Of a DNA stretch of 64,000 nucleotides, positions 3,972-27,487 are shown in pieces. Numbering within the stretch: the first letter of the stretch is position 1; each line of letters begins with the position of its first letter. Source of the stretch: a virus. Made by a program: the position numbers and the translations under genes. The stretch covers positions 1 to 64,000 of IMG/VR virus record IMGVR_UViG_3300037451_000035, one strand, 5' to 3'. The notes under the pieces were generated by a model that saw only the letters and a program-made list of their open reading frames with translations, ran no database searches and was not told the DNA's origin.

Positions 3972-4222
3972 GCAAAAAGAAAACCGACTTCCGCACGCTC
4001 CGCGCCCGCCGCGATAGTGCCATGGCGAGGCCGGAACTTCGCGCCGAATCGGAGCGCCGCGAGGCGCCAGCCGGCGCGACGTCGTTTCCGATCAAGGTCG
4101 CCAGCGCCGAAGATTCCCGATTGGTGGCCGATTTCCTGGCGCGCAAGGGACAAAAGCGGGATGTCCCCGCTAATCAAGATGCCAGCGATAGCGGCTGGCA
4201 ACGAGGCCGCGACTCGGCCTAG
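3968..4222 (+). CDS. Hypothetical protein
   Basis: ATGA coupling to the methylase stop. Confidence 0.5.
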   Translation: MSKKKTDFRTLRARRDSAMARPELRAESERREAPAGATSFPIKVASAEDSRLVADFLARKGQKRDVPANQDASDSGWQRGRDSA

Positions 4223-4231
4223 AAAAGAAAT

Positions 4232-4259
4232 GCCCCGGTCAGGTGAGCGCCTGCCGGGG
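4232..4259 (+). terminator. GC-rich hairpin after the methylase operon
   Basis: ccccgg-t-cagg...cctg-ccgggg stem; no clear U-tract. Confidence 0.3.
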
Positions 4260-4669
4260 CCGATCTGGATGGCCTTGATGGAACGGTCCAGACCAAAGGT
4301 TCTTGATGGAAGCCCTATAGATTTGGGCGGATTCCGTCAACCCTTTGTGCCTCGTTATCCAGCCCGACGCGAGCCATTGCGTCGATTGAGCAGGCCTTCG
4401 ATTGCGCCCAGCGGCGCTCGGCCGCGATCAATTCCGGGGATGAAGCGCGGGGAACTTTGCCGGCGGCGACGCCGGATTTCCTACCCCGGCGAGTGCGGCA
4501 TGTCGGCTCGCCGGCAACTTGGGACTTCTAAGGCATCAGTAATTGCGTGGCCGGCGGGCTGGCCCTTCCGAGATCAGGGCATCCCAAGCTATAGCGCGAA
4601 CATGCTTCCCGATCCGCATGGCCCCGATATCCGGGCCGGAAGTTGCGGAAAGCGGCCTATGGAGGAACG

Positions 4670-21296: not shown

Positions 21297-21391
21297 ATGC
21301 TCTACGATCCGAAATGGGAAGCGCCGGCAGATACAAAGCCGCAGGAACTATGGAGAAGCCTCTTGCTTCGAGCCGCCGACACCATTGAAAA
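21297..21391 (+). pseudogene. 5' fragment of an MLYDPKWE-type phage gene cut by the IS
   Basis: AGGAG SD; MLYDPKWEAPADTKPQELWRSLLLRAADTIEK runs into the IS left end. Confidence 0.6.
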
Positions 21392-21461
21392 GGGAATTAT
21401 ATACTTGACTCCATTTCCAATTTGCGCTAGTTTTCGGGCATGAATTGAGGGAAAAACGGCC

Positions 21462-22391
21462 ATGTCCAAGTCCACCATTTCGACGTTTGAACTGTTCGCC
21501 CTGATCCCCGACGCGGAGACGGCGCGGACCTATTTGGAGGCCCGCCTGTGGCCGAACGGGGCAACCTGCCCGGTCTGCGGCCTTGCCGAGCGGGTGACGG
21601 TTCGGAAGGGCAAGCCCGGCTTCTACCACTGCCAGCAATGCGCAGAGGACTTTACGGTGCGCACCGGCACGATCTTCGAGCGCAGCCACGTTCCGCTGCA
21701 CAAGTGGGTTTACGCGATGTATCTGCTCGTGACGGCCCGGAAGGGCATATCCAGCCTTCAACTGGCGAAAGAGATCGGCGTCACCCAAAAGTCGGCTTGG
21801 TTCATGTTGCAGCGGCTCCGCGAAGCCTGCGGCAAAGACCTGACCATGCTGCAAGGGCTGGTCGAGATCGACGAAACTTACGTCGGCGGGATTGAGGCCA
21901 ACAAGCACGAAAAGGACAAACTGCGCATGGGGCGCGGCCCCGTCGGCAAGCAGCCCGTTTTGGGCTTGCGGGAAAAGGGCAAAGGTGGTCGCGTCAAGGC
22001 GTTCAAGATCGACAGCACCGACGCCGGAACGATCACCGACGTTATTGTGCAAAATGTCGCGGTCGGTTCGACGCTGCATACCGACGAAGCCCAAGCCTAC
22101 GGCGAGATCGGCGGCCTGTTCTTCGATCACGCGACCATCAACCACTCCGCCGGCGAGTACGTCCGCGACGGCATTTCGACCAATTCGATTGAGAGCGTTT
22201 TCGCCGTTCTCAAGCGCGGGCTGATCGGGGTCTATCATCACGCCAGCCCGAAGCACATCGGCCGGTATGTCGATGAATTTGCGTTCCGGTTGAACGAAGG
22301 CAACGTCGCCCGGCACACCCTGGAACGGCTCGATAGCTTCGTCAGCCGCGTTGCCGGAAAGCGCCTGACCTACAAAGCACTTACGGCTTAG
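21462..22391 (+). CDS. IS1595-family DDE transposase
   Basis: CPVC/CQQC Zn ribbon, VEIDETYVGG, LHTDE, STNSIESVF, YVDEFAFR, GKRLTYKAL. Confidence 0.95.
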   Translation: MSKSTISTFELFALIPDAETARTYLEARLWPNGATCPVCGLAERVTVRKGKPGFYHCQQCAEDFTVRTGTIFERSHVPLHKWVYAMYLLVTARKGISSLQLAKEIGVTQKSAWFMLQRLREACGKDLTMLQGLVEIDETYVGGIEANKHEKDKLRMGRGPVGKQPVLGLREKGKGGRVKAFKIDSTDAGTITDVIVQNVAVGSTLHTDEAQAYGEIGGLFFDHATINHSAGEYVRDGISTNSIESVFAVLKRGLIGVYHHASPKHIGRYVDEFAFRLNEGNVARHTLERLDSFVSRVAGKRLTYKALTA

Positions 22392-22403
22392 GAGGATTTG
22401 ACT

Positions 22404-23018
22404 ATGAACAGAAAACCCACCGCATGGCGCATTGCCGATACGTTCCTTGAACTGCGGAAAGAGCGCAGGGAAGAACTCGCGAAATTGATCGAAGCCGAAT
22501 TGGACGCCACGGCGGAATTGACGGTGCATTCGCTGCGCAATGAACAGCATGTCTTTTTCTATGAGCGCGATTTTTACGTCCTGTCGAATTTTTCGGCCTT
22601 TACCTTGGATTGGAAAGGATGGCGCTTCGATACATCTGAGGCCGCTTATCAGTGGGAGAAATTTGCTCACAAAAACGAGCAAGATATTATAGGTGGTCAC
22701 GAATGCGATATTTGCTACGCGATACGCCGCGCGCCGTCCGCTCACCACGCCTTTAAACTTGCAGAAGCATCGGCGGATCGCCGTAGGCCAGATTGGAATG
22801 CTGTTCGTGTTGAAATTATGCGTGACATTTTGCGAGCCAAAGCTAATCAACACGAATACGTCCGCCGAAAGCTTCTTGCGACCGGCGACCGCCAACTGAT
22901 TGAAGATAGCTGGCGCGACGACTTTTGGGGCTGGGGACCTAATCGCGACGGCCAAAATATGCTGGGCAAGCTTTGGATGGAGGTTCGGAATGAACTCCGA
23001 CCCGCAAAAGCCGCCTAG
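22404..23018 (+). CDS. NADAR (YbiA/DUF1768) family protein
   Basis: LSNF, TSEAAYQWEKF, RPDWNAVRVEIM, LLATGDRQLIEDS..DDFWG, GQNMLGKLWMEVR. Confidence 0.93.
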   Translation: MNRKPTAWRIADTFLELRKERREELAKLIEAELDATAELTVHSLRNEQHVFFYERDFYVLSNFSAFTLDWKGWRFDTSEAAYQWEKFAHKNEQDIIGGHECDICYAIRRAPSAHHAFKLAEASADRRRPDWNAVRVEIMRDILRAKANQHEYVRRKLLATGDRQLIEDSWRDDFWGWGPNRDGQNMLGKLWMEVRNELRPAKAA

Positions 23019-23127
23019 CGTTCTCGACGCTATCGCCGACCGGGTGTTGCGGTACCGGCCCAAGCCCAAATCGAAGCCAGCGAAGCGGCGCAAGCGTCGC
23101 GCGGCCAAAATCGAGCGGTCAAAATGA
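22990..23127 (+). CDS. Small basic IS-associated peptide
   Basis: LDAIADRVLRYRPKPKSK, just inside the right TIR. Confidence 0.5.
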   Translation: MNSDPQKPPSVLDAIADRVLRYRPKPKSKPAKRRKRRAAKIERSK

Positions 23128-23147
23128 GGGCAGGGAGTCATGTATAT

Positions 23148-23624
23148 CATGCTTATCCGGTTGCCACACACAAACGCTGAGACCTACTAGATATAGGAGC
23201 TAAAAATGGGTCACCACGGTTCGGAAGAAATGTCGTCGGAAATGCAGCAAAAGCTTGAGGATGCCCTGAAGCGCGACAAAGAGGACGGCGTTCTGCGCAA
23301 GCAATTAGCGGCCGAAAGCCCGCAGTTCGGCGCGAGCGGCAAATATCCCATGGGCAAGCTCGACAAATCCGATGAGGGCGAGATTACGTTCGGAATTGCC
23401 TCGCATTGGGGCAAAGTCATCATCAATTTCGGCAAACCAGTGGCTTGGTTAGGCATGGATGCCGCGCAAGCAATTGCTTTGGCCGCGTCTCTTTTGGAGC
23501 ACGCCCACCGCTGCCGCGATATTGGCCGCGAGCATAGGACGGAAAGCAAAGCCACGAGCGGCGAAACCCAGCCGGTGTCATGACCACAAGATGTAGGGCT
23601 GTGTGTCTAAACCGGATAAGCATG
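23148..23624. mobile_element. Transposase-less IS1595-type insertion cassette (MIC), 477 bp
   Basis: 15-bp perfect TIR catgcttatccggtt/aaccggataagcatg; 8-bp target duplication atgtatat (23140-47, 23625-32). Confidence 0.93.
23206..23583 (+). CDS. Passenger hypothetical protein of the cassette
   Basis: AGGAG SD; G.YP.GKL...DEGEI.FGI...GKV.INFGKPV.WLGM pattern. Confidence 0.75.
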   Translation: MGHHGSEEMSSEMQQKLEDALKRDKEDGVLRKQLAAESPQFGASGKYPMGKLDKSDEGEITFGIASHWGKVIINFGKPVAWLGMDAAQAIALAASLLEHAHRCRDIGREHRTESKATSGETQPVS

Positions 23625-23853
23625 ATGTATATAATTCCCTTATTGAGCGCCTAGCTGGCCTCAAAGGAACGTGGCATTGGGGCCATACTAAAATTCACCC
23701 CTGGATTTACGTAGAGGATCGCGATCTTATCGTGCGGGCGCTGCGAAAACTAATCCAAACCGATGGTGAGGATCAACGGACGCTTATACCGTTCGTTCAC
23801 ACTCATAGCGGCGGCGACAGTTAAGCGATCAGACTGAAACAGGGAGCAAACAA

Positions 23854-24231
23854 ATGACCGACTTACTGGAACGGCTGATCGAGGAAGCGCGGCTGCATGG
23901 CCGCGCGGCGCTGGAGCGTGAGAATGCAATTGCCGCGCTGGAGAACTCCGGCAGAGGATTGGCCAAGACCGTCGAGGCGCTGGAGAATCTTCGAATCGCA
24001 CACGGCACATTGCTGAAAACCACCGAGGCATTGCGCGACGAACTGCACGAATCGCGCACTCGCGAGCAGGCTGGCATCGTCGCCCTTCGCGATATGAACG
24101 CGAGCATCGAGAAATACATCTGGCGTGTGCAAAAAGAGCACGGCAAAAAATCCGCCCGCGATCGAGTCGGCGAACTCGTCCTTGCCAAAGCCGCGGCTGA
24201 CAAAACGATTAAATCATTCGTGCCGTTCTGA
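23854..24231 (+). CDS. Coiled-coil hypothetical protein
   Basis: SD within CTGAAACAGGGAG. Confidence 0.65.
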   Translation: MTDLLERLIEEARLHGRAALERENAIAALENSGRGLAKTVEALENLRIAHGTLLKTTEALRDELHESRTREQAGIVALRDMNASIEKYIWRVQKEHGKKSARDRVGELVLAKAAADKTIKSFVPF

Positions 24232-24692
24232 TGCCGCGTCTGCCGCGCCCGAACATTCCGCTCGCCGTCCGCGTCAAGGTGGCGGAACGGCAACTGCGCG
24301 AAGTCCATCCGCTCGCGGCGAGCATTCTTTACGGGTTGGACGAGCCGATGCCGCTCGGCCGGCGCCTTCAGAGATTGTTGGTTGCGATCTTCGGCAAAGC
24401 GAAAATCGAATTGCATCATCGGCCCGCGTTGGTCAATCGCCGCCGATACGTGCGTAGCGGCAAGGTCTTTTACGATCCGCCGGCGAACGACCCGAACCAT
24501 CTGGTCTATTTGCCCGAGGACGATCACGACATCGAGACTCGCGTGCGCGGCTTGCACGGCCAGCACAGCGATCTCGGGCTGGTCCGAAAACGCAAGCGCA
24601 AGGAGCGGAAGGCGAAGCGACCGAAAACCAGATGGCCGTCGCGTCCATTGCAGAGCGCGAGCCGATGGCCGACGAAGAGGAAAATGCGATGA
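24231..24692 (+). CDS. HNH-like/NinG-like basic protein
   Basis: LHHRPAL...ANDPNHL.YL....H. Confidence 0.5.
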   Translation: MPRLPRPNIPLAVRVKVAERQLREVHPLAASILYGLDEPMPLGRRLQRLLVAIFGKAKIELHHRPALVNRRRYVRSGKVFYDPPANDPNHLVYLPEDDHDIETRVRGLHGQHSDLGLVRKRKRKERKAKRPKTRWPSRPLQSASRWPTKRKMR

Positions 24693-24844
24693 GCAAACAG
24701 ACAATAGGCCCGCGAGAATTTGAACTCCGGCGCCAGCGCGAAGCGGACGCGAAAGCCAAGCCGAAGCCGCTGGCGGATATCACGGCGGAATTGCCGAAGC
24801 CGTCAGGGCGAAAGCCGGTCAAGAGAAAGCGGCCGCACAAATAG
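24689..24844 (+). CDS. Small basic protein
   Basis: ATGA coupling. Confidence 0.45.
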   Translation: MSKQTIGPREFELRRQREADAKAKPKPLADITAELPKPSGRKPVKRKRPHK

Positions 24845-24851
24845 CCGAGCC

Positions 24852-25156
24852 ATGGACGGCCGCTCGACCCTCGCCGAGATCAGTGCCGCGGTGTCACTAC
24901 GATGCTTGCTCCGCTCGGCGCAAAAACTTGGGACTATCTCGACAAGAGACGCGCGATGGTCCAACGCCAAGGAATCAATCGCGTGCGGCCAGCGATGCGT
25001 GCGGGCTGGAAAGCAACCTTCGAAGTGATGGTGCTTTTACCAGAGTACATCGATCGCAATATCCTGCGTGAGACTATTGAGGCGGCTGGCCGTCTCTGCG
25101 GCGTCGGTGATTATCGACCGACGTTCGGTCGATTCGGAATTGTTAAGTTCAAATAG
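24852..25156 (+). pseudogene. RAMP/Cas7-like protein, C-terminal part only (5' truncated, 1-nt frameshift near 24897)
   Basis: DKRRAMVQRQGINRVRP...W.ATFEV and glycine-rich G-loop AGRLCGVGDYRPTFGRF at the extreme C-terminus; in-frame ORF only 84 aa (24902-25156). Confidence 0.7.
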
Positions 25157-25285
25157 GCGCGATGAGGCGGGGTGAGCTATGGTGTGGTCCGGCAAGGTCC
25201 GGCGTGGTGGGGTTGGGTCCGGTGCGGTACGATGCGGTTAGGTTGGGCGGGCTTGGGTGGGGCGTGGTAAGGTACGGTCTGGCCT
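25156..25285 (+). repeat. Array of 26 in-phase GGY-NN pentamers (candidate guide-RNA gene)
   Basis: All 26 units have G at position 1 and C/T at position 3; 22 begin GGY, 4 begin GAT/GCT; positions 4-5 vary freely. Confidence 0.92.
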
Positions 25286-25300
25286 TCATTCTCTGAAGGC
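25282..25300. terminator. Hairpin closing the pentamer array, at the point where + and - operons converge
   Basis: gccttca-ttctc-tgaaggc, 7-bp stem. Confidence 0.5.
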
Positions 25301-25777
25301 GATGGCGCCGCTTACCGGACGACACTGGGTCCGGACGGCGCCATTGTCGTTTCCCGATTCGATCATCCAAGTCCCGGCCGGGCATTCTCCGGCGACGATC
25401 TCCCCGACGTGGTGCGACCAAACGACGATAACCCCCGAATGAGGGCCAGCGGCGGCGTGACCCCAATGCGCCCAATTCCGCGCCAAATTGTAGGCCGGGT
25501 CTGATTCGTGCCTTTGCTGGCGCATGTACCAACCGCACCACTCGCGCGGACGGCCATCGCCGCGCTCTTCAGGCGCTCGCAGGCTCACGTTCGCCAGCGC
25601 CGCCCCGGAGGCGCGGAAGGAGGCGGCCACGCTATGGGCAAAGCCCTGGAGCGCGCCGCCTATGGCTTCGGCAAGGCTTGGAGGCTCGGGCTTGCGGTGC
25701 CGGGCTTCGGCCGAGCCGGCGAGAATCAGGAGCACGACGCCGGCCGCAAAAATGACCCGGCAATCGAGCCGGGTCAG
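25286..25777 (-). CDS. Secreted CHAP/NlpC-like peptidoglycan hydrolase (start uncertain)
   Basis: Signal-like VIFAAGVVLLILAGSAEA; catalytic WCGW...ARNWAHWG...VVWSHHVG...SGN. Confidence 0.7.
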   Translation of the reverse strand: MTRLDCRVIFAAGVVLLILAGSAEARHRKPEPPSLAEAIGGALQGFAHSVAASFRASGAALANVSLRAPEERGDGRPREWCGWYMRQQRHESDPAYNLARNWAHWGHAAAGPHSGVIVVWSHHVGEIVAGECPAGTWMIESGNDNGAVRTQCRPVSGAIAFRE

Positions 25778-25823
25778 TATGGGGAGGTTCCGCCCAAGTA
25801 GGGCGAGACTGTACGCGAACAGC

Positions 25824-26318
25824 CTACGCCGTATTGCTCGGCTCGGCAAATCCGGTGATGCCGGCGAGCCGAACGTCGCTGGAATGGCGGAGGGGATCGT
25901 CGCTCGCATCGTCTTCCTCCATATAGCGGCGCCGCGGTAGCGGCTGGAATGCCGGCGGCATCGTCTTGTCCCTGGCCGCATTCCGAAGATGAAGTTGCCA
26001 TAGCTCCCGATAGATGATCTCAAAGCGGTCGTCGTCCTCGCGATTGTGCCGGGACATGACATAGCGGAAATCCTTCGCGACGGCGGCGATCGCTTTCATT
26101 ATCTCGTCTTTTACGGAATAGGTCAGCGCCCGATTGTTCGATAGCTGGCGCAGGATGAAGATCGTCACGACCGCCGTCAGCGTCGAGGCGGCGACGATGG
26201 CGCCGGCGAGCCACGCCAACAAGCCCTGAGTGACGGGGATATCAGCGGCCGAGGACGCAGCGGGAGCGAGCGGAGCTGCGGCGGCGATCGTCAAAAGCAG
26301 CATTCCGCCATTCCCCAA
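25824..26318 (-). CDS. Membrane protein (holin-like)
   Basis: TM helix followed by a charged tail, in the lysis region. Confidence 0.55.
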   Translation of the reverse strand: MGNGGMLLLTIAAAAPLAPAASSAADIPVTQGLLAWLAGAIVAASTLTAVVTIFILRQLSNNRALTYSVKDEIMKAIAAVAKDFRYVMSRHNREDDDRFEIIYRELWQLHLRNAARDKTMPPAFQPLPRRRYMEEDDASDDPLRHSSDVRLAGITGFAEPSNTA

Positions 26319-26402
26319 CCCATAGCTTTCGACACTTTAGTACCATGACCAAAGTCTCGTCACACTCCTTCGAAAGTCCCGGTACTAAAGTATTGGAGGC
26401 AA

Positions 26403-26891
26403 TCACGTCCTCCGATCCGACAAGATCAAACCTAGTTCAGCGATTCGATCCCTGGCACTTTTCAGAGCAGCAAGCGCCTCGACCGTGGGCTCCGATCCGG
26501 CGGCTTTTTTCAGCTCGATCAATTCTTGCAGCGCTGCGGCCTCACGAACGGCCGAGCCGTATTCGCCTTGCATCGATGCCGTCAAATTGCTGTTGACGAG
26601 GCCGTGGATGGTATCGAGCGTCTTCTTGGATTCCTTGGCCGTCTCGGCAACCTCAGCCGTATTGATCGCCAGCAACCTTGCCGCTTCGGCGGCCTTTCCA
26701 GCCGCTGCGTCCTGGCGCTCGACCAGAAGCTCCGCGGCCTCTGCGGCTTGCCTCGCAACTTTGTCCAGACGCTCGTAATCCTCAGCCTTTTCCTTGCGCC
26801 TGTTTCGGCTGTTCAAGGCGGAGAGTAGGAGCGGGGCAACCGTGCTTGAGACTCCGCCCACGATGACTGCCACTAAAACGGTGTCCGGCAT
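26403..26891 (-). CDS. Membrane-anchored coiled-coil protein (holin-like)
   Basis: N-terminal hydrophobic segment; LDTIHGLVNSNLT motif. Confidence 0.6.
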   Translation of the reverse strand: MPDTVLVAVIVGGVSSTVAPLLLSALNSRNRRKEKAEDYERLDKVARQAAEAAELLVERQDAAAGKAAEAARLLAINTAEVAETAKESKKTLDTIHGLVNSNLTASMQGEYGSAVREAAALQELIELKKAAGSEPTVEALAALKSARDRIAELGLILSDRRT

Positions 26892-26971
26892 TGTCGAATC
26901 GGCCCTCCAAAATGCGCTGCGCCCCGGCCGAAAGCCGAGGCGCGATGTTTAACACGAATCGAAGGTTTTCG

Positions 26972-27487
26972 TCAGCCGGTCGCAGCCTCGCGTTCCGTGG
27001 GAATGCGCTCGCCGGCGCGGTCAAGAATCTTCTTCAGCGAGGCGCTTTCCGGGCTTAGCGGTTGCTGCCGCTGCGGACTGCCGCGAAGCTGAGTGACCAG
27101 CTTGTCGCCCACGGCATCGCGATTGATAATGTTGAGGGCGTGGGCGCCGACCGAAGTCAGATGCCGCGAACTCGTCATCATGGAGCCGACCGCCCGGGAA
27201 AGGACGCTGACGACCTTTTCCTTCGCGCTAAGCTGGCCGCGCAACGCCGCGAGTTCTTCGTCGCGCCGGTCGATCTTGTCTTGGTAATCCTTCGATATGC
27301 GCTCGATCTCCGCCGCTTGCATTCTGGCGGTCTCTTGCAGCGAGGCGCAAAGGTTGGCCTGCTCTTCGAATTTGTCGTCGGCGTCGCCCATCTGCTCGAC
27401 CAGAAGCAAGGTCTCCGCCCTCAGTGTCTCCAGCACGCTCTCCGCGCCTTGCTGGATTTGCCTTGCGCGTTCGGAAAAGTCGCTCAT
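26972..27487 (-). CDS. Coiled-coil hypothetical protein
   Basis: AAGGGG SD before MSDFSERA. Confidence 0.6.
   Translation of the reverse strand: MSDFSERARQIQQGAESVLETLRAETLLLVEQMGDADDKFEEQANLCASLQETARMQAAEIERISKDYQDKIDRRDEELAALRGQLSAKEKVVSVLSRAVGSMMTSSRHLTSVGAHALNIINRDAVGDKLVTQLRGSPQRQQPLSPESASLKKILDRAGERIPTEREAATG

Follow-up and report, generated by a model that had tools for sequence, protein, structure and literature searches.

The locus analysed here almost certainly derives from a VIPR (Viral Interference Programmable Repeat) system with a truncated vipr gene. The explanation that best accounts for the whole of the data, and which is considered probable, is that of a VIPR locus in a contractile-tailed soil phage from which the front of vipr has been lost and in which the array is intact. 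It is located in the window (the whole stretch of 64,000 nucleotides that was analysed), which comprises the first 64 kb of the virus record IMGVR_UViG_3300037451_000035, a sequence of 74,496 bp with terminal repeats. The remnant of the gene is homologous to Vipr proteins and lacks its 5' part, a phased array of GGY-NN pentamers adjoins it, and arrays of this kind are associated with vipr genes in the homologous loci.

VIPR systems consist of the protein Vipr and the RNA vrRNA, with or without a Vap protein (bioRxiv 10.64898/2026.04.26.720920 and 10.64898/2026.04.26.720927). The characterised examples are the type II system of Escherichia phage SUSP1 (PDB 36pp) and that of a Pseudomonas fulva prophage, and vrRNAs are defined in the same preprints by conserved GGY triplets alternating with hypervariable NN dinucleotides. 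A 1-nt skip rule is also part of the definition of VIPR. One Vipr protomer is bound per repeat, which generates a right-handed filament; the NN bases pair with DNA, every third base being skipped, and transcription is silenced. In SUSP1 Vipr, G1 is contacted by His17 (β-sheet) and Asp177 (G-loop), G2 is placed between Arg138 (thumb) and Trp178, and the pocket of Y3 is made up of helix-1 (Glu71, Met72) and Arg179 of the G-loop. Helix-1 has been called the primary RNA-binding surface.

The original prediction described the locus as a candidate RNA-guided system and pointed to a link with VIPR, which turned out to be real, the remnant matching SUSP1 Vipr with an E value of 9.2e-8. The parts are indeed of VIPR type. 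On the other hand, only the C-terminal 87 codons of a protein of ~202 aa are present, so that the locus does not by itself make up an RNA-guided system; moreover, VIPR has already been published, which makes the locus a known kind in damaged form and not a new system.

The truncated vipr gene

The 5'-truncated vipr gene (24893-25156, plus strand) is homologous to residues ~116-202 of Vipr homologues of ~202 aa. Similarity to relatives at the DNA level starts between 24887 and 24893 and ends at the vipr stop codon, and the vipr frame is open for 87 codons. The sole ORF of this remnant, 24902-25156, encodes 84 aa ending in ...AGRLCGVGDYRPTFGRFGIVKFK and is preceded by an in-frame TAG at 24842-24844. 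The start coordinate 24852 given in the original prediction corresponds to an ATG in another frame, outside vipr. The 84-aa ORF aligns with positions 122-189 only of the 194 positions of phrog_4652 (E 5e-14). Homologues of ~200-202 aa amount to 485, the best being 87% identical across the whole window ORF and the next closest 85%. When five full-length homologues were compared by tblastn with the window and the full genome, only residues ~116-202 were recovered, from base 24893, and the first 115 residues left no trace in the whole genome. A second vipr copy is also absent from the whole genome, and the phage therefore cannot build an effector of its own.

Judged by its sequence, the window ORF belongs to the Vipr family. 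Its match in the PDB is chain 36pp_D, the 'SUSP1 Vipr protein' of 202 aa (the E value given above), and the same structure is matched by the full-length homologue P0001 (E 5.7e-8) and by a family profile built from 24 sequences (A1; E 1.3e-9, profile positions 68-198). The G-loop LCGVGD(W/Y)RP.FGRF is common to the window ORF and SUSP1 Vipr. Related proteins were found by tblastn in cultured phages, namely SUSP1-like Felixounaviruses (26-40% identity) and Pseudomonas phages (~30%), and Pfam and NCBIfam returned nothing for the family. Related to this, a full-length homologue 58% identical to P0001 is encoded in GenBank OR003939.1 (Phage DSL-LC04, 22441-23046), where its annotation as 'helix-turn-helix transcriptional regulator' is probably a mis-annotation.

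The full-length homologue P0001 is predicted to fold as a Cas7/Csm3-type RAMP. Its AlphaFold model (mean pLDDT 62, core 70-87) has the topology β-α-β, a β-hairpin thumb and then β-α-loop-β, and nearly all of the 50 PDB entries that Foldseek ranks highest for it are RAMPs of the Cas7 family (type VII Cas7, Csm3, Cas7-11, Csf2), the best with an E value of 3e-3 and a probability of 0.99. A search independent of Foldseek (VIA) placed Cmr4 (Z 7.1), Csm3 (6.6 and 6.3) and type VII Cas7 (6.5) among its top ranks, together with type I Cas7, over ~140 aligned residues and with single Z values that are middling. Because the fold matches are consistent in family and the sequence matches Vipr directly, the RAMP/Vipr identity can be regarded as settled, as had been anticipated when the gene was called RAMP/Cas7-like.

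The stub retains the thumb Arg (NRVRP) and the D-Y-R of the G-loop (LCGVGDYRPTFGRFG), and lacks helix-1 and the β1 His, whose counterpart in the homologues is the near-invariant H41 of an LFHRW motif. At the 48 columns that are at least 95% conserved it deviates once, from F to Y at the aromatic position of the G-loop (W in SUSP1), and a quarter of the intact homologues show at least as many deviations. The ATG at 24902 has a weak GGTG 10-13 nt upstream and no strong Shine-Dalgarno sequence (the preceding gene has GAGGAAA), and its Met is not conserved among the homologues. The missing β1 His and helix-1, the weak Shine-Dalgarno sequence and the unconserved Met together mean that the phage cannot make a working Vipr.

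The GGY-NN array and the homologous loci

The vrRNA-type array (25156-25285, plus strand) consists of 26 phased GGYNN units, 22 of them canonical, with 52 guide-defining NN bases; the units and the NN string are exactly those of the original prediction. It begins on the G of the TAG stop codon (25154-25156) of the 84-codon ORF, and a 7-bp hairpin comes after it, both as predicted. The units that depart from GGY (GAT in units 2 and 16, GCT in units 5 and 20) are all altered at the second G. A vrRNA is recognised by at least four tandem GGY/NN (YNNGG) units adjoining vipr, and here there are 26. The phased array is far beyond chance: its GGY-phase score is 16.5, whereas 100 first-order Markov simulations of the window never exceeded 5, and nowhere else in the 74.5-kb genome does either strand carry an array scoring at least 4. 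Tandem Repeats Finder did not report the array since its units are too unlike one another, as is expected for units composed of a fixed triplet and a variable dinucleotide.

The comparison was extended to 171 loci encoding homologues, 80 from IMG/VR, 49 from genomes of bacteria and archaea (among them Phycisphaerales, Thermomonas, Tepidimonas and Steroidobacteraceae) and 42 from metagenomes. Counting arrays with a score of at least 5 within 400 nt of vipr, a GGYNN array accompanies the gene on the same strand in 144 of the 171, in agreement with the expectation that homologues would be followed by such arrays. Near vipr, 322 arrays lie on the plus strand versus 3 on the minus strand. The column composition of these 322 arrays is G.97, G.91 and Y (C/T).95, followed by two near-uniform N positions; the conserved GGY and hypervariable NN correspond to the definition of vrRNAs, which bears out the proposal that the array is of a guide type. 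The conformity of the window array to GGY (0.85) falls in the normal range of the clade (median 0.89), and in relatives, as in the window, the array often starts a few bases past the vipr stop codon. Compared with the 333 arrays (7,123 units) of the relatives, the window NN string shows no more similarity than shuffled strings do, and it is shared with none of them; it had been foreseen that NN strings would differ among homologues.

The hairpin that follows the array (25282-25300, plus strand; GCCTTCA / TGAAGGC with the loop TTCTC, as given by RNA folding) begins inside the last unit and may represent the 3' end or tail of the array RNA. A convergent minus-strand gene has its stop codon within this hairpin. 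A second, longer hairpin of 10 + 6 bp (25301-25345, plus strand), present in both the MFE and the centroid structures, lies within the 3' end of that convergent gene and could be a two-way transcription stop; it has no T-run, no terminator-like site was called at it, and no promoter-like site was called. Across the clade, hairpins and low folding energies are not enriched after arrays, and the 7-bp hairpin is therefore not shown to be a conserved tail. Array ends are heterogeneous among the loci, a few intact ones ending like the window array with GGCCT and then a T/C-rich stretch, and no conserved 3' tail can be demonstrated for this clade. An Rfam scan of 23500-27000 gave chance-level matches only.

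The locus thus compares with VIPR systems in the sequence-level family match, the G-loop LCGVGD[W/Y/F]RP.FGRF, the RAMP/Cas7-like fold of ~200 aa, the same-strand GGY/NN array directly beside the gene, the hypervariable NN bases and the location in a phage. It differs from them in that vipr is reduced to its last 87 codons, in the 26 units of the array (9-16 in type II VIPR), in the presence of a 7-bp hairpin only instead of a conserved pseudoknot tail of ~40 nt, and in having no recognisable vap gene. With Cas7, Csm3 and Cmr4 of Class 1 CRISPR-Cas systems the family shares the RRM, the thumb, the G-loop and the binding of one subunit per fixed step of guide RNA. Unlike those systems, the locus is phage-borne, has no CRISPR array, other cas genes or spacer-repeat structure, and follows the VIPR step of 5 nt with a 2-nt readout. 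The statement that no CRISPR repeats are nearby was correct, as the window contains no repeat-spacer array and the RAMP stands in it as a lone remnant.

Genomic setting

The phage genome has a G+C content of 61.6%, its sequence is contained in soil-metagenome contigs (no RNA run is listed among the public runs that contain it), and it codes for a tail sheath, a baseplate wedge, a major head protein, a lytic tail protein and a DNA methyltransferase. The sheath, baseplate and head genes indicate a contractile-tailed phage and, together with the terminal repeats, place the locus in a viral setting. With respect to the host, the genome contains no tRNAs and the insertion sequence of the window gave no plasmid match.

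The vipr ORF of 84 codons follows ORFs of 125, 153 and 51 aa that lie in a plus-strand operon. The 153-aa gene (24231-24692, plus strand) has homologues at ~1 kb or less from vipr in loci L002, L004, L008, L133 and L138 (tblastn), and is syntenic with vipr only in the nearest relatives. Its protein family comprises ~250 homologues with the invariant residues L-H-H-R ... N-R ... P-A-N ... H-D-E-T-R. The protein carries an ELHH...N...H motif, and Atlas features give a lead to HNH clusters. No Pfam, NCBIfam or PDB profile was matched, and the fold search with its AlphaFold model (pLDDT 77) gave no clear PDB neighbour; assignment as an HNH nuclease was thus confirmed neither by the Pfam and PDB profile searches nor by the fold search. 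It may be regarded as a possible, unproven accessory gene with an HNH-like motif. Among the 171 loci no conserved accessory (vap) gene was recognised and no neighbour family is common to most of them; the neighbours of vipr are replication and recombination genes (AAA_24, DUF669, RusA, helicase).

Of the intact genes, the 51-aa basic ORF (24689-24844, plus strand), whose start overlaps the preceding stop codon (ATGA), lies closest upstream of the vipr remnant. This ORF has no homologue in the collected vipr loci and sits where relatives such as L008 carry an upstream vrRNA and the start of vipr. L008 is the nearest relative with flanks available, and in it a homologue of the 153-aa gene is followed by a short upstream array, by vipr (3992-4594) and by a downstream array. 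From this arrangement, the window looks like an L008-type layout in which the 51-aa ORF has taken the place of the upstream array and of the initial 345 nt of vipr. None of the collected loci shares flanking DNA with the window.

On the other side of the array, the convergent gene (25286-26062, minus strand) resembles the TIGR02594 family over the final 80 residues of its product (E 3e-5, below the cut-off set for that family). The gene has its stop codon in the loop region of the array-ending hairpin, and the 10+6-bp hairpin is formed by the last 19 codons of the gene.

Upstream of the vipr remnant, the region 21390-23641 of the window contains an IS1595-family transposase gene (E 3e-56) followed by a NADAR-family gene (ribofla_fusion, E 1e-27), the latter with a weak match to a NADAR anti-phage model. 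The element is bounded by perfect terminal inverted repeats of 15 nt (21390-21404 and 23627-23641), and a second, nested pair of 41-nt inverted repeats is found at 23132-23172 and 23600-23640. A transposase 74% identical to that of the window is encoded in L009, 2 kb from the vipr gene of this locus. The end of the IS1595 element is 1.25 kb upstream of the vipr remnant. Deletion of the front of vipr by this insertion sequence was considered and rejected, given that the composite ends at 23641 and no IS end is found at the breakpoint at 24887.

State of the guide and alternative explanations

In an intact system, each GGY of the vrRNA would be bound by one protomer of Vipr, a minimal Cas7-like RAMP, and the filament would present the NN dinucleotides, which would pair with double-stranded DNA, skipping every third base, so that a rival mobile element is silenced. 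The 26 units of the window array would correspond to a gapped footprint of 77 bp. The array would be transcribed by read-through from the upstream operon and the transcript would end at the hairpins. If it acts, it would presumably do so as a solo vrRNA loaded in trans by the Vipr of a co-infecting phage or of a resident prophage. This proposal follows what has been published for VIPR-null SUSP1-like phages and F5 satellites: 346 dereplicated Enterobacteriaceae phages without vipr and vap1 keep one or two solo vrRNAs, whose predicted targets are rival vipr genes, rival vrRNAs or satellites, and the solo vrRNAs of F5 satellites redirect the Vipr of the helper phage to host REP repeats (bioRxiv 10.64898/2026.10.15.759431).

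By analogy, the state of the window resembles that of the VIPR-null phages, in which likewise no working vipr is left in the genome and a vrRNA is kept at the former locus. The VIPR-null phages, in contrast, are Enterobacteriaceae relatives of SUSP1 with a clean deletion of vipr and vap1 and with predicted targets, whereas the window belongs to an unrelated high-GC soil phage in which a vipr stub has been left and for which no target was found. Taking the VIPR derivation as granted, a working solo guide is a real prospect with a little less than an even chance, and the same can be said of a recent relic that has not yet decayed.

The suggestion that the NN string specifies a target, for instance in a competing phage, found no counterpart in the own genome, the 171 loci or the IMG/VR patterns searched. 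The guide was scanned as NN?NN?..., i.e. with a 1-nt skip, on both strands. In the own genome the best site matches 28 of the 52 bases, which is the null level, and skips of 0 and 2 also gave null results; in the 171 loci of the relatives the full guide reaches at most 31 of 52, within the range of shuffled guides, and no DNA-level match to these vipr loci was found. Sub-guides of 8-16 units remained at null level in the own genome and in these 171 loci. Four exact 10-unit patterns tiling the array had 0 matches in IMG/VR, three 8-unit seeds gave 15 loci there with flanks at chance level (5-14 of 36), and a codon-level reading of the guide against 240 proteins of the Vipr family and the family of the 153-aa protein was null.

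The strongest alternative is that of an inert relic, for which the chances are appreciable and somewhat below even: a recent deletion or replacement would have taken the upstream vrRNA and the first 115 vipr codons, and the stub and the array would be inactive and not yet eroded. It is favoured by the untidy deletion, by which the ORF has been beheaded and has no good ribosome-binding site, by the null target searches and by other broken vipr genes that have arrays, truncated in L074 and frameshifted in L079, L127, L129 and L172, which suggest ordinary decay in the family. On the other hand, relaxed constraint is detected neither in the array nor in the stub, neither of which looks decayed, and the published VIPR-null phages retain their solo vrRNAs over long lineages (10.64898/2026.10.15.759431).

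As for these broken relatives, L074 (4001-4420) is a second case of a 5'-truncated vipr, with residues 63-202 only, no N-terminal part upstream and two downstream arrays; in the other four loci vipr is frameshifted or interrupted beside arrays. Loss of the protein with retention of the guide may be recurrent in this clade.

It is much less probable that the 84-aa C-terminal stub is made and useful, either as a cap or poison subunit for the Vipr filaments of rivals or as a minimal GGY binder acting with the array. The frame open over 87 codons, the single deviation among 48 conserved sites and the preservation of the residues that contact G1, G2 and Y3 in SUSP1 (thumb Arg, G-loop D-Y-R) would fit a useful product. 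Nevertheless, without β1 (the His17 equivalent) and helix-1 the stub has only half of the RRM core, no Shine-Dalgarno sequence is clearly recognisable, the Met at which it would start is unconserved among the homologues, and a recent deletion accounts for the intact frame equally well. The related conjecture that the broken locus has been turned into an anti-VIPR device, the stub capping or poisoning rival Vipr filaments and the array soaking up or redirecting rival Vipr, is similarly improbable; if it were true, it would be a protein-plus-RNA counter-measure derived from the very system that it attacks.

It is very unlikely that vipr is complete in the real phage and that its truncation arose in the assembly. 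The record is a metagenome assembly and no contig of a third run (X3) bridges 24873-25453; however, contigs from two soil runs, either of which may be the source of the record, span 23600-26400 and cross the junction without differences (one of 7.3 kb with a depth of 39, the other of 72.9 kb with a depth of 17), and the N-terminal part of Vipr is missing from the entire complete genome. Finally, the possibility that the array is a slippage microsatellite, a G-quadruplex tract or a coding repeat, to which its G-richness (GG every 5 nt) and the short ORFs overlapping it on both strands might point, has practically no credit left and is contradicted by the comparison of sequences, as the 5-nt period rules out a coding repeat, no homogenised repeat appears in Tandem Repeats Finder and, across the 322 arrays, positions 1-3 are fixed, positions 4-5 are near-random and the arrays keep to one strand and one gene family.

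With the locus read as VIPR-derived, the rule of the original prediction, a lone RAMP-like gene with a phased GGY-NN array, is confirmed to find VIPR loci reliably, and the state in which the guide is kept and the protein lost gains a data point outside the phages of Enterobacteriaceae. If solo guides work in trans, Vipr proteins would be a shared resource contested by competing soil phages, and arrays without a protein gene should therefore count in VIPR surveys.

The clade of 171 loci also has arrays much longer than the 9-16 units of type II, with a median of 15 units and a range of 5-161. Uninterrupted GGYNN tracts were observed in L063 (4971-5775, ~161 units), L027 (3234-3813, ~116) and L022 (3446-3930, ~97), and these may be staggered or unpunctuated multi-guide arrays. 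Arrays interspersed with hammerheads were sought in 19 relatives, and a single hammerhead was found, far from arrays: it is a type II hammerhead ribozyme in L063 (1555-1621; 52 bits, above the gathering score), located outside the arrays and 2.4 kb upstream of vipr.
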